A stretch of 57,078 bases of DNA from Bdellovibrionota bacterium (GTDB taxonomy: Bacteria; Bdellovibrionota; UBA1018; CAIPTA01): assembly GCA_036559405.1 (NCBI GenBank), contig DATBTF010000051.1:1-57078 (forward strand), read 5' to 3'. Positions 1 through 47,115 of the stretch are shown one piece after another. The notes beneath the pieces were generated by a model. The model was not told the DNA's origin, did not search any database, and was given only the letters and a program-made list of their open reading frames with translations. The position numbers were made by a program, and so were the translations under genes. Every line of letters starts with the position of its first letter. The first letter of the stretch is position 1.

Positions 1-485
1 CCCTCTTTCGGCTGTCTCTCCAGCCTTTCTATGAACTGGGCTCCGATCTTTTCAATGGCCCGCCGGGATCTGACGTTATTTTCGCCAATATAGAAGTAAA
101 CTTCGTTTACGTATTGGAAAGCATGGCCAAGCATCAGCTTCTTCAGCTCTGTATTGTAGCCCTTTCCCCAACACCTCCGGGCGAGAAACGTATAGCCCAC
201 CTCAATTCGAGCGTTGGGAACATCCAAGCCAGTGAAACGCGAAGTACCGATCACCTCGCCGGAAATGGAATCGAAAGCCAATAGGGCTCCCTTGGATTCC
301 ATAGCCCCTTGAAAAAAACCCTGGAAGACATCCCTCTGATAACGAGTTCGTTCGGGATGCTGCTCCCAGACGAGGGGGTCCGAAGAAACGGCGAAAAGCG
401 ATTCGAAGTCGGCGGCCAGGAGCGGGCGCAGGCGGACCAGTTTTCCCTCCAGCAGCGGCTGCAGGTTGAATCCGGGCATGCTCAT
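1..485 (-). CDS. GNAT-family N-acetyltransferase (RimJ/RimL-like); 3' end runs off the window
   Basis: Not in the ORF track because it has no in-window stop. The reverse strand from ATG 485 is open to position 1: MSMPGFNLQPLLEGKLVRLRPLLAADFESLF...IEVGYTFLARRCWGKGYNTELKKLMLGHAF...NVRSRRAIEKIGAQF, a GNAT core pattern. Its ATG overlaps the udk stop (ATGA). Confidence 0.6.
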   Translation of the reverse strand, partial: MSMPGFNLQPLLEGKLVRLRPLLAADFESLFAVSSDPLVWEQHPERTRYQRDVFQGFFQGAMESKGALLAFDSISGEVIGTSRFTGLDVPNARIEVGYTFLARRCWGKGYNTELKKLMLGHAFQYVNEVYFYIGENNVRSRRAIEKIGAQFIERLERQPKE

Positions 486-1114
486 AAAAACTTCTGCAGC
501 CTCTCACTTACCTCGCGCAATGCCATCGAGAAGTCGCCTTGGTCGCAAACCACGCGACTCGCATGCGCCTTCGAAGGCTCGACATAGAGATCGTGCATCG
601 GCTTCACCTGCTTGAGGAACTGGGTTTTCACTCCCTCGGGAGTGCGGCCGCGTTCCTTTACATCGCGCTCCATGCGCCGCTGGAAACGAATGGCTTCCGG
701 CGTGTCGAAAAATATCCGCTCGTCGAAAAGCCCCCGCGCCAACTCGGAATGCAGGATCAGGATGCCGTCCACAATCAGGATCGGCCGCGGTTCCACCTTC
801 AGTGTCTGGGGAGAACGGGTATGGGTGGCGAAATCATAGATGGGAATCTCCGTGCTCCTGCCTTCCTGCAGCTCCCGCAGGCAGCGCGCGAGCAAGGGGA
901 AGTCGATGGAGTCAGGATGGTCAAAGTTTACCGAGCCGCCGTCCCTGTCAAAACGGGCTGACTGGTCGATATAAAAGTTGTCCTGGTAAATCAGCTCGCA
1001 GTGCGAGGGCCCCAGCTGCTGGCGGAGGGCGCGGGCGAAAAAAGTCTTGCCCGAGCCACTGCCGCCGGCCACTCCAAGGAGATAAGGCTTACTTCGTCTG
1101 ATAGAGCCGGTCAC
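482..1114 (-). CDS. udk: uridine kinase
   Basis: P-loop LLGVAGGSGSGKTF, then IYQDNFY, DHPDSIDF, ILIVDGIL and FFDTPEAIRFQRRMERD. Track ORF 482..1192 trimmed to GTG 1114; the upstream residues are not kinase-like. Start uncertain. Confidence 0.85.
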   Translation of the reverse strand: MTGSIRRSKPYLLGVAGGSGSGKTFFARALRQQLGPSHCELIYQDNFYIDQSARFDRDGGSVNFDHPDSIDFPLLARCLRELQEGRSTEIPIYDFATHTRSPQTLKVEPRPILIVDGILILHSELARGLFDERIFFDTPEAIRFQRRMERDVKERGRTPEGVKTQFLKQVKPMHDLYVEPSKAHASRVVCDQGDFSMALREVSERLQKFL

Positions 1115-1721
1115 CCGCGTCTCCCAGACCCGGCACGAGATAGCCCAGATCGTTGATCTCCTTTTCCACCCCGAGTGTGAAGATCTCCACATCCGGGTGG
1201 AAATGGTGGATGCGCTCCACGGCGAATTCGCTGATCAGGATCGAAAGCACTTTCACCCGCTCCACCTCATAGCTCTTCAACCTGTCGATGGCGGCGAGCA
1301 TGGTATCGGCGGTGGAGATCAGGGGATCGCAGAGCAGCGCCAGGCGGCCTTTGATGTCCGCGGGCATTTTGAAATAGTACTCCACTGTGTCGTGGATGAA
1401 TTTGTCGCGGTAGATGCCGATGAATCCCGCGCTGGCGAATGGAATCATCGAGAGCACGGGATCGAGCATGCCGTTCCCGGCCCGCATCACCGAGACCACC
1501 ACGGGGGGGTTCTGGATCCGATCGACTCTCGCCTTCGCAAGCGGGGTTTCGATCTCCACCTTGCCCATTTCTTTCCAGTCGCGCATCACCTCGTAGGCCA
1601 GAGAGCGGCTGACCTCCTTCACCAAGGCACGGAAGCCGGCCGAGGGCGTGTTTTTATCACGAAGGTAGCCCAGCTTATGTTTCAGGAGAGGATGATCGAC
1701 CACTACGAGTTTGTGCTTCAT
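1089..1721 (-). CDS. upp: uracil phosphoribosyltransferase
   Basis: MKHKLVVVDHPLLKHKL..., PRPP motif LLCDPLISTADT, C-terminal YLVPGLGDAGDRLY. ATG 1721 is preceded by GAAGG. Confidence 0.9.
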   Translation of the reverse strand: MKHKLVVVDHPLLKHKLGYLRDKNTPSAGFRALVKEVSRSLAYEVMRDWKEMGKVEIETPLAKARVDRIQNPPVVVSVMRAGNGMLDPVLSMIPFASAGFIGIYRDKFIHDTVEYYFKMPADIKGRLALLCDPLISTADTMLAAIDRLKSYEVERVKVLSILISEFAVERIHHFHPDVEIFTLGVEKEINDLGYLVPGLGDAGDRLYQTK

Positions 1722-1742
1722 GCTTGTTACCTTCACGTGTCC

Positions 1743-2963
1743 CTAGAAAACGGTCCCGTCGCTCACGATGTTCAGGGGCGGCACCCCGTCTTTGCGCTTC
1801 TCTTCGGCGAGCTGCCGGCCGGCCCACCAGGTTCCGCCTTCGAGCACCTTGGCCAAGGGAAAGTCCGCGGGGGATTTTTTCAGCGCCTTCTGCACTTCCG
1901 CGCCTACAAGATCCAGCAGGTGAATCGTGAGCGCGCGCCACTCGATAATCAGATCGTTTTCAGGCTTCCAGTCGCGCTCGGCGTCGGCCGGATCTTTGAG
2001 GCTGATCAGCCCCGAATCAAGAAACAATCCGCCGTTCCGGTACTCCGCCAAGCCCGTAAGCTCCTCCACACCGGTCACCGGCACACCTGCCTCGAGGATC
2101 GGTTCGATCATCGAATAGGTAAGCCACTGGGAAAGCTTATGGAAGGGAACGAGAGATTTGATAATGCTGGTGGGATCGAGGGCCGAATGCCTCCAGGTGT
2201 CGCCGAGGTTCACACCTTTACACATCATGCGTCCCGGCCAGATCGGCCCAAGGCCCTCGAGTACAACCCTCAGGATACCTGTGGCGGGGATCGACTCCCC
2301 AAAGCGGTTTCTCAGGCAATCGTAGATATGGCCAGGGCGCCCGGTGCCGAAGATCTCGCCATTGGAAAGGGCTTTGCCCAGACTCTTGAGCAGACCGAGC
2401 CGGCCTTCGACACCCACAAGCGGGTTTCGTTCGTTGGTCTGGAAATGTGTCATCAGCTCAGTCATTTTGAGCTTCTCCAGTCCCTGAGCGTCCACGCGCG
2501 GAGTCTGCCCGTCGGAGCTCATCGCGCCAGCGAGAAACATCCGCAGGCTCGCTACCCCGAGGCCTTCCGAGCGGAAAAGCAGCTGCGTGCCATCGCGGTA
2601 CTTCCATGCTGGGCCGGCTCCGGCGTCGAGCAGCACGGATGTGATCACCAGGTCGAGCTTGCAGCGCACCCGCTCGATGGCACCGAAGCGGGCGAGCTTC
2701 TCGTTCAGTTCCTTCACCCGATCCACACCACCCGCGCGGAAATGTCCCCAGCGCGAATGGAACGGAATATTCAGGTCCGGGTACTTCTTTTTTATTACGT
2801 CGAGCACCAGCTTCACCGTGGGCTCGAGCTTTTCGGGATGGTAGCGGAAGTGGCCTTTGCGCTTCTCGGTGCGCTCGAAGATCACCTTCGCGCGATCGCG
2901 GATCGCTTTGGGCGTGAAGATATATTCGAGCTCCGGCGTGCTTAGCGGCACTTCACTCTTCAA
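1743..2963 (-). CDS. URC4-like protein (DUF1688 family)
   Basis: 406 aa. Recognised from memory of the DUF1688/URC4 family (HSRWGHF, LLDAGAG, FHKLSQWLTYS, NGGLFLD). Sits between upp and a URC1-like gene, as in URC clusters. Confidence 0.7.
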   Translation of the reverse strand: MKSEVPLSTPELEYIFTPKAIRDRAKVIFERTEKRKGHFRYHPEKLEPTVKLVLDVIKKKYPDLNIPFHSRWGHFRAGGVDRVKELNEKLARFGAIERVRCKLDLVITSVLLDAGAGPAWKYRDGTQLLFRSEGLGVASLRMFLAGAMSSDGQTPRVDAQGLEKLKMTELMTHFQTNERNPLVGVEGRLGLLKSLGKALSNGEIFGTGRPGHIYDCLRNRFGESIPATGILRVVLEGLGPIWPGRMMCKGVNLGDTWRHSALDPTSIIKSLVPFHKLSQWLTYSMIEPILEAGVPVTGVEELTGLAEYRNGGLFLDSGLISLKDPADAERDWKPENDLIIEWRALTIHLLDLVGAEVQKALKKSPADFPLAKVLEGGTWWAGRQLAEEKRKDGVPPLNIVSDGTVF

Positions 2964-4221
2964 TGTTCCGCCCCTTCACTTTACGCAGCTGCTCGCGAGT
3001 CTTCTTCGGGCCGGTACTGAGGTAACCCGCCGCCTTTTTCGCCTCCATCTCCACGTGCGCATCCTGGGGGATGAGCTCGTCGGGGATGGAAATCCGGTTC
3101 ACCACCTCGATGCCACTCTCCACGATGGCGTCGTATTTCATATTGCTCATCGAGTGAAGGTTGTGGATTTTGCGAATGCCGAAGAAATGCAGCACGTCGG
3201 GCATGAACTCCTGGAAGCGCGCATCCTCCACTCCCGCAACGCACTCGGTGCGCTTGAAGTAGGTCTCGGCGCTGTCGCCGCCTTCCTGGCGCTTGCGAGC
3301 GTTATAAACGAGAAACTTCGTGACCTCGCCCAGCGCGCGGCCCTCCTTACGGTAGTAGACGATGATCCCCACTCCGCCCGCCTGGGCGGTGCGAGCGGCG
3401 TCTTCAATCCCGAACATGAGGTAGGGGCGGCAGGTGCAGATGTCAGAACCGAATACGTCGGAGCCGTTGCATTCATCGTGCACGCGGCAGGTGAGTTCAA
3501 CTTTAGGATTCGCGAGGTCTTCGGGATTGCCGAAGATATAGGCCGTGGAGGAGCCGATCGGCGGCAGCCAGACTTTGAGATCAGGACGCGTGATCAGCTC
3601 GGGATACATCCCTCCCGTTTCCTGGAACAACAAACGCCGCAGCTCGCCCTCATCGACCTCGAGCTTGGTGGCGATGCCTGACAGATACCAAACCGGGTCG
3701 AGAGCGACCTTCGTCACGCAGACATCGCCCTGGGCCCGGATGATCTTTCCGTCTTTTCTGAGCCGGCCTTTGCGGATGGCGTCTTCGATTTCGGGAATCT
3801 GCAAATGCGCCTGGGTCACGGCGATGGTCGGGCGGATGTCGTAGCCTTTTTTGTAGAGCGGACCGAAGTGAAGCTGGGGGTCGAGGCCCCAGGGGTCCAA
3901 GGACACGATCTTCGTGGGATCGAACCACTGCTTGTACGGGCCGATCTTCGTGGGGCTCTCGGTATTGTGCAGGTCGGGTACGTGAGCGTGCGGGTATTTT
4001 CCCGTGGCGATCGAGAGCGCACGGTACACCGTATAGCTTCCGCTATGCGTGCCGATGGCGTTGCGGGCTTTGGGGTTGGTGAGCGAGGCCACCACTGGCC
4101 CGCGCTTCATCGGATCTTTCTCACCCCAGCGGATCGGCAGGCTTTCTTTAAAAAGAAGGCTCGAATGCGTGGCGAGGATCACATGGTTGGCGCGTTTTTT
4201 CGGGTTGAGTTCCAGTTTCAT
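2953..4221 (-). CDS. URC1-like GTP cyclohydrolase II paralogue
   Basis: 422 aa. RVHDECNGSDVFGSDICTCRPYL matches the RibA zinc/GTP motif (RVHSEC..GD.FGS..C.C). A long N-terminal extension is typical of URC1 rather than RibA. Confidence 0.75.
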   Translation of the reverse strand: MKLELNPKKRANHVILATHSSLLFKESLPIRWGEKDPMKRGPVVASLTNPKARNAIGTHSGSYTVYRALSIATGKYPHAHVPDLHNTESPTKIGPYKQWFDPTKIVSLDPWGLDPQLHFGPLYKKGYDIRPTIAVTQAHLQIPEIEDAIRKGRLRKDGKIIRAQGDVCVTKVALDPVWYLSGIATKLEVDEGELRRLLFQETGGMYPELITRPDLKVWLPPIGSSTAYIFGNPEDLANPKVELTCRVHDECNGSDVFGSDICTCRPYLMFGIEDAARTAQAGGVGIIVYYRKEGRALGEVTKFLVYNARKRQEGGDSAETYFKRTECVAGVEDARFQEFMPDVLHFFGIRKIHNLHSMSNMKYDAIVESGIEVVNRISIPDELIPQDAHVEMEAKKAAGYLSTGPKKTREQLRKVKGRNIEE

Positions 4222-4225
4222 ACTT

Positions 4226-5692
4226 TCATCCCATCCAGGTGCTATCTTTTTGCGCTTCCCACTTCACGGTGACTTTCTTCACGTTCGACCAGAAATCCAG
4301 GCTGTGATGCCCGGTGATATCGCCATGGCCGAATTTCGAGGCATTGACGCCGCCGAAGGAAAAAGGCTCCCGCGGCACGGGCACGCCCACGTTCACGCCC
4401 ACCATGCCGGTGCTCGCTTCGCGTGCTACGCGTTCTGCGAGCGGGCCGGAAGAGGTGAAAACGGAGCAGGCATTGCCGTAGTCCACGGAATTTTCAATCG
4501 CCATGGCTTGCGATAGGTCTTTGCAGTGGACGATGCTCAGTACGGGGCCGAAAAGTTCCGTCGTCGCCGCCTCGGAGCCCTCTTTCACCATGTCCAGAAT
4601 CGTGGGGCCGAGCCAGTTGCCGCCCTCCTGTCCCGCGGGAGCTGCAGCCTTTCTTCCGTCCAGCAGAATTTTAGCGCCAGCCTTCTCGGCCCTTCCAATC
4701 GCTTCAACCAGGAAAGCTTTCTGCTCTTTGGTGATGATCGCGCCCATTGTTTTTCCCAATTCCAGCGACGAGGCGCGCTTAACGATCTGCTCGATATGTT
4801 TGTCGACGCTGCCTACCGCCAGCAAAACGGAAGCGGCCATGCAACGCTGGCCGGCGCATCCGGTGAAGGAATCCGAGATGCCGGGGCCCGCGAGCTCGGG
4901 CGCGGCGTCGGGCAGAAGCACGATGTGATTCTTGGCTCCGCCAAGCGCGAGTACGCGCTTCCCGAGATTGGTTCCACGTTGATATACAAGTTTCGCCACA
5001 CGAGTCGAACCAACGAAACCCACCGCCTTCACCAGTGGGTGATCGATGATTGCGTTCACGGTGTCCCCTGCCCCATGCAGAACGGTGAATACGCCCTTGG
5101 GCAGGCCAGCTTCAGAAAGAGCATCCGCTATCTTCTTCGCTGTCAGCGGAGTTTTGTCGGAGGGCTTCCAGACATACGCATTCCCCAAAGCCAGCGCGAT
5201 CGGGATCGTCCAGAGCGGCACCATCGCGGGAAAGTTGAAGGGCGTGATATTCGCGATCACGCCCAGAGGCTCGCGCCGGTATTCGCACCAGACTCCGCGC
5301 GAAACTTCCACCTTGCCGCCAAGATCGAGATTCTGGATCGATAAAGCGAACTCGAGCACCTCGATGCCCTTCATCAGGCCGGCCTTGCCTTCGTCAAAAG
5401 TTTTCCCGCTCTCGGCGCTCTTCAAAGAAGCGATAGCATCCGCCTCACGCAGAAGAATATTCCGGAAGTCGTAGAGAACTTTAGAACGCTCTTTCACGGG
5501 AAGCTGCGCCCAGGCCTTTTGCGCCACCGCCGCCGCCTGAATGGCTTTTTCGATCTGCGTTTTGGACGGAGCCGAGCACGAACCGAGCTTGCGCCCGTCA
5601 TGGGGCGAGTGGATCTCGCTCGTTCCGGCCTCGCCTTTGGCCCAGGAACCGTCAATAAAGTTATCGCAGACCACAGCTCCGGTCTGTTTCAT
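4226..5692 (-). CDS. mmsA: CoA-acylating (methyl)malonate-semialdehyde dehydrogenase family aldehyde dehydrogenase
   Basis: ALDH fold with FTGCAGQRCMAASV catalytic-Cys motif, FNFPAMVPLW and VGVNVGVPVP. ATG 5692 is preceded by GAGGTG; the track start at 5713 is a TTG. Confidence 0.85.
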   Translation of the reverse strand: MKQTGAVVCDNFIDGSWAKGEAGTSEIHSPHDGRKLGSCSAPSKTQIEKAIQAAAVAQKAWAQLPVKERSKVLYDFRNILLREADAIASLKSAESGKTFDEGKAGLMKGIEVLEFALSIQNLDLGGKVEVSRGVWCEYRREPLGVIANITPFNFPAMVPLWTIPIALALGNAYVWKPSDKTPLTAKKIADALSEAGLPKGVFTVLHGAGDTVNAIIDHPLVKAVGFVGSTRVAKLVYQRGTNLGKRVLALGGAKNHIVLLPDAAPELAGPGISDSFTGCAGQRCMAASVLLAVGSVDKHIEQIVKRASSLELGKTMGAIITKEQKAFLVEAIGRAEKAGAKILLDGRKAAAPAGQEGGNWLGPTILDMVKEGSEAATTELFGPVLSIVHCKDLSQAMAIENSVDYGNACSVFTSSGPLAERVAREASTGMVGVNVGVPVPREPFSFGGVNASKFGHGDITGHHSLDFWSNVKKVTVKWEAQKDSTWMG

Positions 5693-5948
5693 GCGCACCT
5701 CGAATGCGTTCAAAGGAACACGATAATGCAGGCTTAGAGGCTTGGGAAGCCCTCAGGGGCGGGGCGTCCAAGATACCGGAGTGATTCGCAGCAGAAGCGT
5801 CATTTCTCCGTCATCGCAAAGGGGCGAAAGGCGTTGGTATACTGAACGTCCGTTTGCCAGGAGGGGATTCGGATGCGTGCATGGATGGCACTTTTGGTTT
5901 TGCAGTTTTTTCCAGTGGAAGCGTGGGCGGACTGGGCGGAAGAAGCGA

Positions 5949-6410
5949 TCAGTCCTGCCTGGAAGGCCCTGGCCCTTCGCCCTTCTTCGTCTCGCCCGAA
6001 CCCTTGGCCAAACGGCTCAAAAAGCTCACCAGGAACTCTTCGAGCAGATCCTTGATCCGCTCTTCCCGGGAACTGGCCTGTCTTTGAGGCGCGGCCGGGG
6101 GAGACGAAGCACGGCTTAAGATCCAACCCACTGCGCAAAGCAGCAGGCCCAGCCCGAAGAGAATCGTGGACGAGACCATCAGGCCCGAATAGCGCATCCC
6201 CATGCCACCTTCGATCTGCAGCCCGACCTCCAGAACCGCTACGATCAGGCCGGAAAAAAAGAAAAGCGCCGCGAGGGAAAGGAAGAAAAAGGAAACGACC
6301 GCCCGCTTCCCTTTTTCCGCTACGTTCCGGGCCGACTCCACGATCGCCTGACCCTCGTAAAGACTCTTTCGCAAAGTTAGGAGCTGAAGAAGCAGAGACA
6401 ACCAGTTCAT
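5949..6410 (-). CDS. YqjE-like membrane protein (DUF1469/holin-X-like)
   Basis: Trimmed to MNWLSLLLQLLTLRK...; two TM segments. Lies immediately downstream of a YqjD-like gene, as in E. coli yqjD-yqjE. Confidence 0.5.
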   Translation of the reverse strand: MNWLSLLLQLLTLRKSLYEGQAIVESARNVAEKGKRAVVSFFFLSLAALFFFSGLIVAVLEVGLQIEGGMGMRYSGLMVSSTILFGLGLLLCAVGWILSRASSPPAAPQRQASSREERIKDLLEEFLVSFLSRLAKGSGETKKGEGPGPSRQD

Positions 6411-6412
6411 CG

Positions 6413-6667
6413 TTATTTTCTCCGTCCGAGGAAGGCGCCCAAAACAAAGCCCAGGGCTGCCGCGCCCGCCACGCTCTGCAACGGGTACTTGCGTACGAAA
6501 ACGGCTGCGTCGTCGCCCATTTCGGAGGCGACTTTTTTCAGCTGCTCCCATTCCTCGGAGTTCTCGAGAGCGTTCAGCCTCTCCTTGAGATTTTCCCCGG
6601 ATTCGGAGGCGGCCTTTTTCGCCCGCTCCGCCAGCTCTTCCAGCTTCGACTGCACGCTTTCTTTCAT
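6413..6667 (-). CDS. YqjD/ElaB-like (DUF883) membrane-anchored stress protein
   Basis: 84 aa. Helical charged N-terminus plus C-terminal anchor PLQSVAGAAALGFVLGAFLGRR, the ElaB/YqjD signature. Confidence 0.65.
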   Translation of the reverse strand: MKESVQSKLEELAERAKKAASESGENLKERLNALENSEEWEQLKKVASEMGDDAAVFVRKYPLQSVAGAAALGFVLGAFLGRRK

Positions 6668-7134
6668 AAACCTACCTTGCAGGAATATTTATCCGCCTGC
6701 ACGCCATGGTACCCTGCTCCTTTGTACTGTAACCACAATTTTAGCCGGCCGCCCTTGCCCTGGAACAAGGATTTTTCGGCATAGAGATAAACCGCGGTGC
6801 TCCGCTCCTCATCGGCGAAGCGGTCGCCCTCGGGATTGTCGCTCACATAGTAGGTGGGTACCCCGATTCGCTTCTCTTCGGAATGGGAAACGCGATTCGC
6901 ATGGTAGGAGTGGCCCTCGGCGGCGATGGCGGAGTTCTCTTCTCCCTTGCGCTTCACCAGAACGGAAAATTGCTTTTCGCTTTTGATTCCGAGCTGGAGC
7001 TCCAGTTCCACGGGAAAGCCCTGGTCTTCCACTTTGTCGAGATTGTTGCAGCGTATGGGAGTCGCCTGGGCTCTTCCGGAAGGAAAAAACAAAACAAAAA
7101 AAACCGCCAAAGACAGGAACATCCCTTTTCCCAT
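6664..7134 (-). CDS. secreted hypothetical protein
   Basis: Signal peptide MGKGMFLSLAVFFVLFFPSGRAQA. ATGA overlap with the downstream gene. No SD; see the leaderless finding. Confidence 0.6.
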   Translation of the reverse strand: MGKGMFLSLAVFFVLFFPSGRAQATPIRCNNLDKVEDQGFPVELELQLGIKSEKQFSVLVKRKGEENSAIAAEGHSYHANRVSHSEEKRIGVPTYYVSDNPEGDRFADEERSTAVYLYAEKSLFQGKGGRLKLWLQYKGAGYHGVQADKYSCKVGL

Positions 7135-7503: not shown

Positions 7504-8205
7504 TTGCAAATTCGCCGCACAGCCGCGAGAGTAGCCACGTTGAAGCCGCTGGAAAAAATCCAGGAGAAGATCGTGAACTGCGAGCTCTGCCCTCGCCTGC
7601 GAAAGCATTGCGCCTCCATCGCCAGGGAAAAGCGCCATGCCTTCCGGAACGAGACCTACTGGGGCAGGCCGGTTCCCAGCTTCGGCGACCCCGAGGCTCG
7701 GCTGCTGATCGTTGGCCTTGCCCCGGCCGCCCACGGCGCCAACCGTACCGGCCGGATGTTCACGGGCGATCGCTCGGGCGACTGGCTGTACCGCGCTCTT
7801 CACAAGGCCGGCTTCGCGAGCCAGGCAAGCTCCCTCGGCCTGGACGACGGCCTGAAACTGCGCGATGCCTGGATCACTGCCACCGCCCACTGCGCGCCTC
7901 CCGACAACAAACCCAGCCCGGTGGAGATCGCCCGCTGCTCGTCCTACCTGAAAAGCGAGCTCACCTCGATGAAACGGGTCAAGGTGGTCCTGGTGCTGGG
8001 AGGCATCGCCCTGAACGGCATCTGGAAGTTCGTGGGCCACGGCGCCCGCCCGAAATTCGGCCATGGAGCGGAGCGCACACTGGAAAGCGGGAAGACGCTT
8101 CTGATGAGCTACCATCCTAGCCAGCAGAACACCTTCACCGGACGGCTCACCGAGCCCATGTTCGACTCGATCTTCGCGAGGGCGAACGAGCTAATCAGGA
8201 AATAG
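7504..8205 (+). CDS. uracil-DNA glycosylase, family 4/5 (UdgB-like)
   Basis: CELCPRL Fe-S Cys pattern, motif A GLAPAAHGANRTGRMFTGD (family-5-like, no catalytic polar residue), HPSQQN motif B. Start uncertain (TTG 7504 or TTG 7540). Confidence 0.8.
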   Translation: MQIRRTAARVATLKPLEKIQEKIVNCELCPRLRKHCASIAREKRHAFRNETYWGRPVPSFGDPEARLLIVGLAPAAHGANRTGRMFTGDRSGDWLYRALHKAGFASQASSLGLDDGLKLRDAWITATAHCAPPDNKPSPVEIARCSSYLKSELTSMKRVKVVLVLGGIALNGIWKFVGHGARPKFGHGAERTLESGKTLLMSYHPSQQNTFTGRLTEPMFDSIFARANELIRK

Positions 8206-8227
8206 ACGGAGAATAAAACGAAAATTT

Positions 8228-8614
8228 CTAATGGCAGTACCTCTGCGCCACCTGGAGAAGTTTGGCGATGTCGATGGGCTTGGTGAGCACTTCACTTACC
8301 TGGCAGCCGGCGGCGCCTTTTTCTCCTGCGGCGGTGATCAGCACCACCGGGGTTTTCGCCACGGAACGGTTTTCGGCCTGAGCCATCGCCCGCAGGAACC
8401 CGCGGCCGTCCATCACCGGCATCATCAGATCGAGCAGCACCAGGCAAGGTTTGACTTTGGCAAGGGTTTCCAAGCCAGTGCTGCCGTTCTCCGCCATTGC
8501 CACCGAATACCCTTCGCTCACGAACAGCTCCTCGAGCGCTTCACGGATGCTGTCGTCGTCCTCAATCACTAGAATTTGTTTATGGCCCTCGTCCTGGCCG
8601 AGATGGTTTTCCAA
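8228..8614 (-). CDS. single-domain response regulator (CheY-like receiver)
   Basis: ILVIEDDD, LVLLDLMMPVMDG (phospho-Asp) and LTKP. No output domain. Confidence 0.85.
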   Translation of the reverse strand: MENHLGQDEGHKQILVIEDDDSIREALEELFVSEGYSVAMAENGSTGLETLAKVKPCLVLLDLMMPVMDGRGFLRAMAQAENRSVAKTPVVLITAAGEKGAAGCQVSEVLTKPIDIAKLLQVAQRYCH

Positions 8615-42001: not shown

Positions 42002-42541
42002 ATGAAAAAACCCGCCGTAAACGCCTGCCACTTTCCCACCGCTATCGGCGAAATGGCTGTCGCCTGGCGCGCTGAGCGCGTTGTCGGGGTATTCCTGCCG
42101 GAAACGAGCGAGCGGAAGCTCCTGGCCTCGGTACGCAAGCGTCTCCGTGCCTCCAAGTTAACGTGGTCGCTTGCGCCGCCCACGCACGTGGGCCATATGG
42201 CCGCGCAGATCCGCGCCCACCTGCGGGGCGAATCGCAAGACTTCGATCTGAGCCAGCTCGAGATGCCCAAGCGCGGGCCATTCATGAGCAAGGTAATCAA
42301 ATGCCTGCTGAATGTGACCTCCGGCACCGTATTGACCTATGCGGAGCTCGCCGCCAAAGCCGGCAGCCCGAAGGCGTTTCGGGCTGTGGGACAAGCCATG
42401 GCCAGGAACCCCTTCCCCATCGTGATCCCGTGCCATCGCGTGGTGGGCGCCAGCAAGAATGTCGGCGGCTTTTCCGCGCATGGCGGCCTCGCCACCAAGG
42501 CGCGCATCCTTAAAATCGAAGCTCACGACGACCAAGCATGA
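42002..42541 (+). CDS. ogt: methylated-DNA--protein-cysteine methyltransferase
   Basis: TYAELAAKAGSPKAFRAVGQAMARNPFPIVIPCHRVV (PCHRV active site). Confidence 0.85.
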   Translation: MKKPAVNACHFPTAIGEMAVAWRAERVVGVFLPETSERKLLASVRKRLRASKLTWSLAPPTHVGHMAAQIRAHLRGESQDFDLSQLEMPKRGPFMSKVIKCLLNVTSGTVLTYAELAAKAGSPKAFRAVGQAMARNPFPIVIPCHRVVGASKNVGGFSAHGGLATKARILKIEAHDDQA

Positions 42542-44001
42542 AAATGGGACAAACCGACAGAACCTGGGTGGTGATCGCCCTCCTCTGCGCCGTATTCCTG
42601 GCGGCTATGGAGGCCACGGCTGTGGCAACCGTGATGCCCACCATCATCGGCGACCTGGGCGGTCTCAACCACTACGCCTGGGTGTTCACCGCCTATATGA
42701 TGAGCTCCACGGTGACCGTGCCGATCTACGGCAAGCTCTCCGACCTTTACGGGCGGAAGCCGGTTCTTCAGATAGGCATAGCTCTCTTCCTCCTTGGCTC
42801 CCTGCTCTCGGCCATGTCCCGCACCATGATCCAGCTGATTCTGTTCCGCGCCATCCAGGGTCTCGGCGCCGGCGCCATCCAGCCCACCGGTCTCACCATT
42901 ACAGGCGACCTCTTCAAGCTCGAGGAGCGCGCGCGGGTAACGGCGATCTTCGGCACTGTATGGGGCGTGGCCGGTGTGCTCGGGCCCTTGATCGGCGGGC
43001 TGATCGTGAAAACGCTCGGCTGGCCGTGGATCTTCTACGTGAACATCCCCTTCGCCATCGCCTCGACCCTCATCATCCAGTGGGCGCTGGTGGAGGACGT
43101 CGAGCGCAAGAAAACCCGCCTCGACTGGCTGGGCGCGATCTTCCTCAGCCTTACCATTGTGGGTGTTCTGCTGGCGGTAAACGATCCCGACCACGTTGCG
43201 TACCTCGTGCCCGGCTCCATCCTCTGCTTCGTGGCCTTTCTGCTCGTGGAGCAGCGGGTGCAGGAGCCCATCGTTCCGCTCGACCTTTTCTCCAGCCCCG
43301 TGATTTCCAATGCCAGCCTAGTCAGCATCATGCTCGGGGGCGCGATGCTCAGCTTTGTGACCTTCCTTCCTCTCTATGTCGAAGGCGTACGGCGGCTCGG
43401 AGTATTTTACGCCGGGCTGAGCATCATCCCCATGGGGATCGGCTGGCCCGTGGCCAGCGGCATCTCGGCTCGTCTGCTTCCCCGGGTGGGATTCCGAGTG
43501 CTGCTGCGAACGGGCCTGCTGCTGGTGTTCGTTGGGAGCCTCAGCGTGGCTTTGAGCGCCTATTGGTCGCTGCCCTTCGGCGCTCTGATGGCGGGCATGG
43601 GAGTGCTCGGCCTCGGGATGGGCTTTTCGAACATCCCGCTCCTCTTTTCCGTTCAGACTTCGGTGCAGTGGAACCGGCGCGGCACCGCCACTGCCAGCAC
43701 ACTTTTTTTCCGGACGATCGGCGGCACCATTACCGTGGGGGTGATGGGCGCGATTCTGGCGAAAGCCCTGAGCCGCGACCCGAGCCTGCCGCTGGGGCTG
43801 GCGAACGACCTGATCGGTCCCGCGCATGGGGCTGGCGTTTTGCCCGAAATGCTCGACAGGCTGGCGGCCGTGATGGACTGGGGACTCTTCCGCATCTTCT
43901 TCGGAAGCAGTGCAGTCGCGCTCTGTGCGCTGATTTTCGGTTTGTTTTTTCCCGACATCGGTAAAGAGGCGAAGCTGAATGAAGAAATTGAAGGTCTATG
44001 A
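42538..44001 (+). CDS. MFS transporter, DHA2 (EmrB/QacA-like, 14-TMS) drug:H+ antiporter family
   Basis: AMEATAVATVMPTIIGDLGG, GKLSDLYGRKP, FRAIQGLGAGA motifs. Confidence 0.85.
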   Translation: MKMGQTDRTWVVIALLCAVFLAAMEATAVATVMPTIIGDLGGLNHYAWVFTAYMMSSTVTVPIYGKLSDLYGRKPVLQIGIALFLLGSLLSAMSRTMIQLILFRAIQGLGAGAIQPTGLTITGDLFKLEERARVTAIFGTVWGVAGVLGPLIGGLIVKTLGWPWIFYVNIPFAIASTLIIQWALVEDVERKKTRLDWLGAIFLSLTIVGVLLAVNDPDHVAYLVPGSILCFVAFLLVEQRVQEPIVPLDLFSSPVISNASLVSIMLGGAMLSFVTFLPLYVEGVRRLGVFYAGLSIIPMGIGWPVASGISARLLPRVGFRVLLRTGLLLVFVGSLSVALSAYWSLPFGALMAGMGVLGLGMGFSNIPLLFSVQTSVQWNRRGTATASTLFFRTIGGTITVGVMGAILAKALSRDPSLPLGLANDLIGPAHGAGVLPEMLDRLAAVMDWGLFRIFFGSSAVALCALIFGLFFPDIGKEAKLNEEIEGL

Positions 44002-44967: not shown

Positions 44968-45186
44968 ATGGCTCCTAAGATGACGACGCTTCACACTTCA
45001 CCCCTTCTCAAGGCCGCCACTGCCGGCTTGCAGATCCTCTGCGAGTACAAAGTCACGCCTAAAGCCAGGCGGCTAAAGGCCCGCCTGGTGGCCGTGCGTG
45101 GCGGCACTCCCGTCTGCGAAACCAATCTGCCCGGCACAATCCAGGAAATGCTCGCGGACTACCGTTTGAGCGAGCCTAAACACTAG
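44968..45186 (+). CDS. small hypothetical protein (72 aa)
   Basis: ATG 4 nt after GGAGG. Candidate promoter TTGCCT-16-TACACT upstream. No homology recognised. Confidence 0.4.
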   Translation: MAPKMTTLHTSPLLKAATAGLQILCEYKVTPKARRLKARLVAVRGGTPVCETNLPGTIQEMLADYRLSEPKH

Positions 45187-45231
45187 AACAGACTGCGCTT
45201 TCCGCTCCCACACTCCAGCGTGTGGGCCTCA

Positions 45232-45245
45232 ATGACATCGCTCCC
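45232..45245 (+). repeat. exact copy of the TGACATCGCTCC motif
   Basis: ATGACATCGCTCCC, 31 nt upstream of ATG 45263. Confidence 0.8.
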
Positions 45246-45262
45246 AACACCGATACGGAAGC

Positions 45263-46759
45263 ATGCGGCTCCTGCCTCTCATTCTTGCTCTCTTTATGTT
45301 GTTCAGCGCAGCTGCGCACGCCAAAGGCGTAGTGCTGATGCTGAACATGAACTACTCGAGCGCCGAGCTGAAGGCCGTGGAAGAGCAGGCGGCGGCCCGC
45401 GGGCAGCGCGTGGAAATGGTTCCTCCCAAAGAAATGATCGCCGATGTCGAAACGCTGTTCGCCAAGCGCAACGCCCTTCAGGCAGAGCTCATCAAAGGTT
45501 TCCCCAACGAGACCAAGCCAAGAATCAATAGCGCGGTATCCGGCATCATGCGCAAGGGCTCCGCATGGGACGGCAGCGCCGAGCTCGTGGCGTCTTTGGG
45601 ATCCGAACGCATGGATGAGCTGGCCGAGCTCACCCATAAGGTGTTCGCGCAGGAAGAGCAGAAAGGCAGCCTCTACGACCAGCTCAGGCGCAAGGCCGCT
45701 GAACTCAAAGCCAAGGGCGACCGCGTGGATACCTTCGTGATCAGCTCGCATTCCGACGGCTCCAACCTTACCGGCGAGACCAATAACCGCCTTTCCGCCG
45801 ACGATCTCGCGCGCCTCAAGCACGAATCCCCGGAACTCTTCGATTCCCCCCGGCATGTGCTGCTGCTCGGCTGCTACAACCTCACCGCGCCCAACCACAA
45901 AGTGTGGCGCTACGATCTGTTCCCCGGAGCCAGCATGCTTGCCGGCTTCGGCCTGCGCGCGCCGAGCCGCCTTGACCCCACCTCCTCCGACTTCATCCGC
46001 CAGACCCTCAGCACCGGCCGGAAGCTCGACGGGGAAATGGCCAAGGCGGGCAGGCCGCTCGACCCGGCTTATGTGGATTCGGTTTTCAAGAGCCTCAAGA
46101 CCTTCACCACCAAAGACCATCCCGGCGTGGCGGATTACTGCTTCCAGATGGTGGAAGGCCAGCCGGACACCTTCACCCACGACTGCGACAAGCAGTGGGA
46201 AGATCTCTTTCTGCAGAAAAAAAAGCTCGAGGACTACTGGTCGCTGCGCGACCCCTACCGCGACCCGACCACCGACGGGGGCGGAAACCTGCGTGCCTTT
46301 TACAACGCGCTCCAGGGGGCCTGTCCCGCGGAAGACGCCAAAAGCCTGCCGCAGGAAGAAAAGAAACTGGCCGAACGTTTCCGCGTGACCATGCGTGAGC
46401 TGGTGATCCGCCTGATCTACTGGTGGAACGTGCAGCACAACTTCTCCACCTACTACGAGCGGGAGATCCGCGATATGAACGCCAGCCTCAATCATGAGGG
46501 AATCGGCGAAATGCCCAAGCTCGACGGCACCATGAGCCGCGTGGAGTTCGTAAATGCCTTCAACCAGGGCTACGATCTCCTGGGCAAAGCCAATCCCGGA
46601 CTGCAGAAAGAGTTCTACCGTTTGTACGCGCCGCTGTTTTTTCTCAAGGGAGAAGACACCGTGGCGCAGGGGGAAGCGATGGACGTCGAAAGCACGCTTT
46701 CCCGCAAGGCGATCCCCTTCCATTGGATCGAAGGCACCACCGTAGTGAGGAAACGATGA
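45263..46759 (+). CDS. secreted hypothetical protein with a possible clan-CD-like His/Cys dyad
   Basis: Signal peptide MRLLPLILALFMLFSAAAHA. VISSHSDG ... (about 40 aa) ... VLLLGCYN resembles the CHAT/caspase-fold His-Gly / x-Cys arrangement. Confidence 0.65.
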   Translation: MRLLPLILALFMLFSAAAHAKGVVLMLNMNYSSAELKAVEEQAAARGQRVEMVPPKEMIADVETLFAKRNALQAELIKGFPNETKPRINSAVSGIMRKGSAWDGSAELVASLGSERMDELAELTHKVFAQEEQKGSLYDQLRRKAAELKAKGDRVDTFVISSHSDGSNLTGETNNRLSADDLARLKHESPELFDSPRHVLLLGCYNLTAPNHKVWRYDLFPGASMLAGFGLRAPSRLDPTSSDFIRQTLSTGRKLDGEMAKAGRPLDPAYVDSVFKSLKTFTTKDHPGVADYCFQMVEGQPDTFTHDCDKQWEDLFLQKKKLEDYWSLRDPYRDPTTDGGGNLRAFYNALQGACPAEDAKSLPQEEKKLAERFRVTMRELVIRLIYWWNVQHNFSTYYEREIRDMNASLNHEGIGEMPKLDGTMSRVEFVNAFNQGYDLLGKANPGLQKEFYRLYAPLFFLKGEDTVAQGEAMDVESTLSRKAIPFHWIEGTTVVRKR

Positions 46760-47115
46760 GAAAATTTCTAGTCCTGCTGCTCTTGCCCTTACTTTCCATT
46801 GCAGAAGAGGGCCTTCAGGTAGAGGTGAATCCCAAGGTCTATGCTCCCAAAGATTTTCAGGGCAAAGGCGTGAAGACGGGGAAAATTCCGCCCCGTGTAA
46901 GGCGGGCCGATCGCATACCTGACAAGAGCAACCGCGAAGCCGCCTTCGCATGCGTGCCCGGCCTCACGGAAGATCTGGCTAAAATGGACGAGCTGGACCG
47001 CGACATATTCTATGTGCGGGCAAAGACGAAGGAACTCAAAGAACTCAAAACCCTCTATCCGTCGATTGGGGAGAAAAAGCTCGCGCTCTTACAGCAGAAG
47101 CTGAAAGAAAAATAA
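46756..47115 (+). CDS. secreted hypothetical protein
   Basis: ATGA overlap with the upstream gene. Signal peptide MRKFLVLLLLPLLSIA; Lys-rich helical C-terminus. Confidence 0.55.
   Translation: MRKFLVLLLLPLLSIAEEGLQVEVNPKVYAPKDFQGKGVKTGKIPPRVRRADRIPDKSNREAAFACVPGLTEDLAKMDELDRDIFYVRAKTKELKELKTLYPSIGEKKLALLQQKLKEK

Follow-up and report, generated by a model that had tools for sequence, protein, structure and literature searches.

A probable URC-type operon for pyrimidine nucleotide breakdown in Bdellovibrionota, with a URC4 proposed to be a Qng1-like N-glycosidase

Known URC systems and the Bdellovibrionota locus

Of the four pathways for pyrimidine degradation, the URC route is, to our knowledge, understood least. 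The subject of this analysis is a probable operon of this type at positions 1 to 5692 (minus strand) of a 57,078-nucleotide stretch of DNA (the window) from a Bdellovibrionota bacterium (GenBank assembly GCA_036559405.1, contig DATBTF010000051.1), in which the genes for URC1, URC4 and uracil phosphoribosyltransferase (UPRTase, upp) stand between a gene for an aldehyde dehydrogenase (ALDH) and one for uridine kinase (udk).

The closest described systems include: (i) URC1/URC4/URC6 of the yeast Lachancea kluyveri, (ii) urg1-urg2-urg3 of Schizosaccharomyces pombe, and (iii) bacterial clusters, all of which have the URC1 and URC4 families and a linked UPRTase in common with the window. In a model paper on Lachancea, URC1 and URC6 together turn uracil into ribosylurea plus 3-hydroxypropionate; the ribosylurea is then processed to urea by URC4, and URC3,5 degrade the urea. 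Yeast genetics tie URC1, URC4 and UPRTase to ribosylurea, urea and 3-hydroxypropionate. According to PMC3869809, which cites Andersen et al. 2008, bacteria and fungi both have conserved URC1 and URC4, and the genomic arrangement of these genes, UPRTase included, is conserved as well. A review presents UrcA, the bacterial enzyme of the URC1 family, as hydrolyzing UTP in two steps during uracil breakdown.

The core order URC1-URC4-upp of the window is that of Rhodococcus, Variovorax and most metagenomic loci, whereas the addition of an ALDH of the (methyl)malonate-semialdehyde dehydrogenase (MMSDH) type upstream and of udk downstream, in one operon, sets the window apart from the known URC clusters. 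In yeast, a reductase takes the C3 product to 3-hydroxypropionate and urea amidolyase is used for the urea; neither a reductase nor a urea enzyme is seen in the window. The Rut pathway (rutA-G of Escherichia coli) is similar to the URC route in that uracil is opened at N3-C4 and degraded via malonate semialdehyde. By contrast, Rut acts on the free base by a flavin monooxygenase and releases ammonia instead of urea, and no Rut genes are present in the window.

An earlier, sequence-only reading of this DNA held the bacterial counterpart of the yeast route to be essentially uncharacterized and the URC1 reaction to be unresolved. Both statements go too far, as the linkage of URC1, URC4 and upp is credited to Andersen et al. 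2008 and the URC1 family is described as a UTP cyclohydrolase. Both the core system and the reaction of URC1 have been described before; what looks new is the five-gene order, the uniform CoA-acylating signature of the ALDH and the homology of URC4 to Qng1. The sequence-only reading had noticed neither that the five-gene form is in essence specific to Bdellovibrionota nor the kinship of URC4 with Qng1.

A five-gene operon on the minus strand

The identities of the six open reading frames (ORFs) at the edge of the window were assigned by Pfam and NCBIfam profile searches of the window ORFs. The features of the region are:

5720..5748, minus strand: candidate promoter or operator upstream of the ALDH gene, with the motif TTCCCAA-N16-TATCGT
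4226..5692, minus strand: ALDH of the CoA-acylating (methyl)malonate-semialdehyde dehydrogenase type (PF00171, 413 bits; TIGR01722, 437 bits)
2953..4221, minus strand: URC1/UrcA-type cyclohydrolase (GTP_CH_N PF12471, 258 bits; GTP_cyclohydro2 PF00925, 55 bits; NF005536, 716 bits)
1743..2963, minus strand: URC4/urg3, DUF1688 (PF07958, 466 bits)
1089..1736, minus strand: uracil phosphoribosyltransferase, upp (PF14681, 198 bits; NF001097, 227 bits)
482..1192, minus strand: uridine kinase, udk (NF004018, 213 bits)
1..485, minus strand: GNAT, RimJ/RimL-like Acetyltransf_3, truncated at the window edge (PF13302, 75 bits)

The junctions of the six genes are all overlaps or gaps of at most 21 nucleotides (nt). 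By sequence reading, the ALDH and URC1 genes are separated by 4 nt, while URC1 and URC4 overlap by 11 nt; the start of the ALDH gene (ATG 5692) is preceded by a GAGG Shine-Dalgarno sequence 5 nt ahead. URC4 and upp are 6 nt apart; with ATG 1721 as the start of upp, the gap would be 21 nt. This ATG is preceded by the better Shine-Dalgarno (GAAGG, 9 nt ahead) and is the probable start rather than the ORF end at 1736. Based on the sequence and on a 208-residue orthologue in the closest relative (locus L001), udk probably starts at GTG 1114, not at 1192, and from this start it overlaps upp by ~26 nt. The udk and GNAT genes meet in an ATGA overlap, such that the GNAT start lies on the udk stop. A 582-residue ORF on the plus strand (1197-2945) is rejected as a gene and regarded as a shadow ORF antisense to URC4/upp in GC-rich coding DNA.

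Much of the sequence-only reading is upheld by these results: the six co-directional ORFs are tightly packed at or near the positions that it gave, with the starts of upp and udk slightly corrected, and the strong family matches and conserved order agree with its proposal that upp and udk belong to a pyrimidine catabolic operon of the URC1/URC4 type. The region is quite probably a polycistronic URC-type operon for pyrimidine nucleotide breakdown in an uncultured member of the predatory Bdellovibrionota, the metabolic flow proposed below included.

Conservation in Bdellovibrionota

A collection scan with URC4 gave 80 genome loci, all from Bdellovibrionota (Bdellovibrionales, Pseudobdellovibrionaceae and Bacteriovoracaceae), including the complete genomes of Bdellovibrio sp. 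qaytius, Pseudobdellovibrio HCB154 and Peredibacter HCB2-198. Counting only the loci with enough flank for the gene concerned, URC1 is ahead of URC4 in 70/70 loci, upp comes after URC4 in 75/75, udk is next to upp on its downstream side in 69/72, and the ALDH gene is directly upstream of URC1 in 59/63; the linkage claimed from the window is, thus, kept in relatives. By ORF clustering of the 80 loci, the five operon families are the only ones that are broadly common within 8 kb on either side, with the next family present in 7 loci. This arrangement is far beyond chance. The order recurs in ~60 independent Bdellovibrionota genomes, the flanks of which are otherwise unrelated. The ALDH-URC1-URC4-upp-udk set is a conserved module of Bdellovibrionota, near-universal in this phylum and rare elsewhere, and looks new.

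The GNAT gene, which had been taken for the terminal gene of the system, has no homologue in the related loci (0/80). Although translationally coupled in the window, it is rejected as a pathway member since a counterpart is missing from 80/80 relatives, and the system is instead viewed as a five-gene unit to which the GNAT is a local passenger.

In two loci, a gene for a DTW-domain protein (tRNA-uridine aminocarboxypropyltransferase family) follows upp (L009, 4989-5630; L015, 9867-10502). These loci are among the few of Bdellovibrionota without the ALDH and udk genes.

URC clusters of other lineages

The DUF1688 family is large (2401 clusters at 50% identity), and its bacterial members already bear the name "URC4/urg3 family protein" at NCBI. 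When metagenomes were scanned with a diverse alignment of DUF1688 sequences as the seed, 80 more loci were obtained, and 73 loci are distant from the window. The core of the distant loci is again URC1-URC4-upp, with upp adjoining in 48/58, while a co-directional ALDH gene is adjacent in 4/33 and udk is found in 3/50. Nine loci are Bdellovibrionota-like, and these have the ALDH gene in 6/6 and udk in 7/7. The clusters of Rhodococcus and Variovorax consist of URC1-URC4-upp only, followed in Variovorax by a Bmp-type nucleoside ABC transporter.

An MMSDH-type ALDH gene is beside URC1 in distant lineages as well, in L108, L112, L134 and L153, and in divergent form in L087 and L088. In L087/L088, this divergent gene is upstream of URC1 at ~2900-4450 (minus strand), while another copy of upp, convergent with the first, is downstream of it at ~7900-8570 (minus strand).

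URC1 and URC4 also occur as fusion proteins, of 786 (P0469), 1031 (P0510) and 647 (P0315) residues. The P0510 fusion has an additional ~230 residues at its N-terminus with no domain assigned, and P0315 is missing most of the URC1 N-terminal domain. The URC1 homologues of Rhodococcus/Mycobacterium and those of Variovorax, Xenophilus and other Burkholderiales are 85-87% identical, which is unusually high between phyla and suggests that the cluster may have been transferred horizontally between them.

Proposed pathway and physiological role

In the proposed pathway, udk would convert uridine and upp would convert uracil to UMP, which housekeeping kinases would raise to UTP. The Zn-dependent cyclohydrolase of the URC1/UrcA type would then take off pyrophosphate and open the uracil ring hydrolytically, after which the C4-C5-C6 fragment would leave as malonate semialdehyde and a phosphoribosyl-urea species would remain. 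URC4 is proposed to cut the ureido group from the ribose-5-phosphate to give urea, while the ALDH would convert malonate semialdehyde, CoA and NAD+ to acetyl-CoA, CO2 and NADH. The net yield from pyrimidines would be ribose-5-phosphate, acetyl-CoA and NADH, plus urea. The exact intermediates, the enzyme that releases malonate semialdehyde and the physiological role are, in this scheme, those that we infer.

Several points weigh against the operon and flow as proposed: (i) no enzyme of the operon is assigned to the release of malonate semialdehyde, (ii) there is no urease or urea carboxylase in the 57 kb, (iii) three Bdellovibrionota loci are without both the ALDH and udk genes, (iv) the ALDH scores 437.2 bits on TIGR01722, the model of CoA-acylating MMSDHs, and is thus 11 bits short of the cutoff of 448.5, and (v) URC4, when compared to the N-glycosidase Qng1, has Glu307 at the position of the nucleophilic Asp and reaches 12.2 bits on the Q_salvage model versus a threshold of 25, which makes it a remote homologue and not a member of that family.

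Of the ~45 larger ORFs of the 57-kb window, none has a domain of urease, urea carboxylase, allophanate hydrolase, the Rut pathway or the reductive pathway, in line with the sequence-only reading, which saw no Rut, reductive-pathway or urea-amidolyase/urease gene. Likewise, urea-degrading genes are absent within 8 kb on either side of the operon in the 80 relatives. A role in which pyrimidines taken from prey supply carbon and energy is favored because no urea-using gene is nearby and the genes added in this phylum recover carbon, not nitrogen.

One alternative, which is unlikely although not strongly so, is that the operon serves to scavenge nitrogen as in yeast, with urea hydrolyzed by a urease or urea amidolyase of which the gene is elsewhere in the genome, and the ALDH merely detoxifying malonate semialdehyde. 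The URC route of Lachancea allows growth on uracil as sole nitrogen source with urea amidolyase downstream, and the core of other bacterial lineages is linked to uptake ABC transporters and LysR regulators, as would fit nutrient scavenging. Such a role is, however, at odds with the missing urea-degrading genes of the window and relatives and with the nature of the conserved extra genes, in that MMSDH contributes to the recovery of carbon and udk to the intake of nucleosides, and neither to nitrogen release. The more specific proposal, that Bdellovibrionota rebuilt the URC route as a self-contained carbon and energy pathway for pyrimidine nucleosides from prey, in which urea is discarded, and that URC4 is an unrecognized branch of the helix-hairpin-helix (HhH)/Qng1 glycosylase superfamily that cleaves urea from 5-phosphoribosylurea, is advanced tentatively, at somewhat less than even confidence.

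URC4 and its relation to Qng1

The assignment of 1743..2963 to DUF1688/URC4, as read from the sequence, is confirmed by its match to PF07958. An AlphaFold2 model of URC4 built from 44 homologues (pLDDT 92.6, pTM 0.91) was compared to the PDB by Foldseek, and the top 11 matches are all Qng1/DUF2419 (E 2e-9 to 1e-7, probability 1.00, target-normalized TM 0.72-0.76), with a two-lobe HhH fold; the next PDB match after the Qng1 chains has an E of 0.35. The sequence profiles point to the same family. The Q_salvage model (PF10343) is matched by 62/120 diverse DUF1688 proteins at E<=1 (best 6.9e-8), compared to at most 6 for any other family, and the best matches of a 120-sequence URC4 profile in the entire PDB are four Qng1 chains (E 0.013-0.12). 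Neither a single-sequence search nor a 44-sequence profile of URC4 gave a meaningful match to the PDB sequences, and Foldseek of URC4 versus viral structures gave nothing. Based on profiles and the modeled fold, URC4 is remotely homologous to Qng1, a queuosine-5'-monophosphate N-glycosidase in the HhH DNA-glycosylase superfamily. This link is not made in the searchable literature that mentions DUF1688, URC4 or urg3; it may be recorded elsewhere.

For Qng1, D231 has been proposed as the nucleophile; the ribose is held in position by K199, Y232 stacks on it, and the carboxylate of the C-terminus reaches into the active site (PMC9881137). The profile alignment places F-H-K276 of URC4 on F-Y-K199 of Qng1 and A-E307-Y308 on A-D231-Y232. 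The C-terminus of the URC4 family is invariably ...SDGTVF, which is reminiscent of the functional C-terminus of Qng1, and the C-terminal residue is aromatic in both. While the fold matches and the HhH Lys (K199/K276) and the acid-Tyr pair (D231-Y232/E307-Y308) align, URC4 is only ~15% identical to Qng1, has Glu in place of Asp and is ~80 residues longer. In Qng1 and, as proposed, in URC4, the base is attached to ribose-5-phosphate; the leaving group is a 7-deazapurine in Qng1, whereas urea or a ureido compound is proposed for URC4. URC4 is, thus, proposed to be a Qng1-like N-glycosidase that would free urea or a ureido fragment from ribose-5-phosphate, in view of the fold, the family-wide Pfam matches and the aligned catalytic Lys and acid-Tyr motif.

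It is distinctly unlikely that URC4 is, instead of a urea-releasing glycosidase, an enzyme that hydrolyzes the ring-opened ureidoacrylate nucleotide at N1-C6 to free malonate semialdehyde, or one that uses another nucleotide. In fold and catalytic motif, URC4 corresponds to an N-glycosidase whose substrate is a nucleoside 5'-monophosphate, and the yeast metabolic model has URC4 degrading ribosylurea to urea. In favor of such an activity are the lack of an assigned enzyme for malonate-semialdehyde release, the Glu at the position of the Qng1 nucleophile, the many invariant Arg residues of URC4 and the fact that URC4 has no solved structure or assay.

The MMSDH-type aldehyde dehydrogenase

The ALDH of the operon is ~45% identical to solved MMSDHs and has TIGR01722 as its best match, with all other ALDH models scoring more than 160 bits lower. 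Its GQRCMA motif carries the catalytic Cys, preceded by Arg, and ALGGAKNH is found in place of the usual general-base Glu motif (GAKN for ELGG). These GGAKN and GQRCMA signatures are shared with MmsA, IolA, BauC and ALDH6A1. All URC-linked ALDHs (74/74) carry GGAKN and G[QE]RCMA, including the two divergent genes of L087/L088, which are 39% identical. From this signature and the gene context, the substrate of the ALDH is presumed to be malonate semialdehyde, and the sequence-only proposal that a CoA-acylating MMSDH-type dehydrogenase closes the C3 branch is plausible, with GQRCMA present and TIGR01722 the best model. The recurrence of the same ALDH subtype beside URC1 in separate lineages supports a functional link of this subtype to a URC product.

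The ALDH gene of the window is part of a pyrimidine operon and not of one for valine, inositol or beta-alanine. An ordinary MMSDH of the valine, beta-alanine or inositol pathway, which is a neighbor by chance and has no URC product as substrate, is very improbable: the gap to URC1 is only 4 nt, the ALDH-URC1 adjacency is kept in 59/63 loci with otherwise variable flanks, the association recurs in distant lineages (including the divergent, 39%-identical MMSDH-type gene), and no valine or beta-alanine pathway genes are nearby in the window. What speaks for this alternative is the TIGR01722 score just under the cutoff, the service of MMSDHs in several pathways and the absence of the ALDH gene from 29/33 of the non-Bdellovibrionota URC clusters.

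The URC1/UrcA-type cyclohydrolase

The URC1-like protein of the window is 59.8% identical over 413 residues to PDB 7EJ3. The 7EJ3/7EEV structures are of a Rhodococcus protein, which is 99% identical to P0121. We take these to be the UrcA structures of Zhang et al. (ACS Catal 2021), a probable correspondence. The window protein has the Zn motif C251-x10-C262-x-C264 in common with Rhodococcus UrcA, together with a two-domain architecture, and residues equivalent to Tyr105 and Arg128 of RibA are aligned in it. The two systems differ in that Rhodococcus belongs to another phylum and has no linked ALDH or udk gene, whereas both are linked in the window. The URC1-like gene is, therefore, predicted to encode a Zn-dependent enzyme of the UTP cyclohydrolase type that opens the uracil ring. 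The description of UrcA as a UTP cyclohydrolase, along with the 60% identity of 7EJ3/7EEV to the window protein, implies that the substrate would be UTP rather than UMP.

That the gene encodes the GTP cyclohydrolase II of the riboflavin pathway, and that the cluster is not catabolic, is hardly credible, as already judged from the sequence: although NCBI and the PDB label the family "GTP cyclohydrolase II" and the Zn ligands and catalytic Tyr and Arg are kept, the RibA models reach only 40-57 bits versus cutoffs of 148-764 (e.g., NF001591, 57 versus 148, and TIGR00505, 49 versus 206), the protein has an extra GTP_CH_N domain of 190 residues, the gene is always paired or fused with URC4 and upp, and the family is described as a UTP cyclohydrolase.

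Regulation and neighboring genes

A bipartite motif, TTCCCAA-N15/16-TA(T/G)CGT, is upstream of the ALDH start in 9/57 loci of several Bdellovibrionota families (the window, L003, L028, L030, L046, L055, L057, L058 and L079). The motif is 27-70 nt ahead of this start, with the window copy at 5748-5720 (minus strand) ending 27 nt ahead. It is found in none of 300 shuffles and nowhere else in the 1.02 Mb of loci or in the window. The motif is, thus, a candidate for an operon-specific promoter or operator, and could be an alternative-sigma promoter. A sigma-70 consensus scan found no promoter, Rfam matched neither a riboswitch nor any other RNA, in the window as a whole as well as in the operon's 5' region, and terminator-like matches are no commoner than in shuffles.

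A gene of the uracil-DNA-glycosylase superfamily is 1.8 kb upstream of the operon (7504-8205, plus strand). In the closest relative, L001, a gene of this superfamily (4453-5214) is directly divergent from the ALDH gene, which may be coincidence. The gene is not accepted as a conserved neighbor, being common to the window and its closest relative only. Between it and the operon (5949-7134, minus strand), the window encodes a holin-X-like membrane protein, a DUF883 glycine-zipper protein and a 156-residue protein without a Pfam match; these three small genes are not at the corresponding position in the closest relative. Elsewhere in the window, ORFs of 501 (42459-43964, plus strand) and 591 residues (45176-46951, minus strand) have no Pfam match and a third-position GC of 0.46 and 0.59, respectively, compared to ~0.75 in their neighbors, and may be spurious or recently acquired.

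Implications for URC pathways and predatory bacteria

The core genes of the URC route are widespread, yet URC4 is still labeled a "domain of unknown function". Its homology to Qng1 gives the DUF1688-labeled protein a concrete and testable mechanism, with residues to mutate, and the glycosidase reading, if true, would fill the last enzymatic gap in the URC route of fungi and bacteria alike. The Bdellovibrionota operon brings five enzymes together in one predicted transcription unit, with udk and upp as inputs followed by ring opening, URC4 and a malonate-semialdehyde dehydrogenase. This operon variant supports malonate semialdehyde as the bacterial C3 product, and the compact set of five enzymes is suited to reconstitution in vitro. 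For the biology of predation, it suggests how Bdellovibrio-like bacteria may draw carbon from the pyrimidines of prey RNA.

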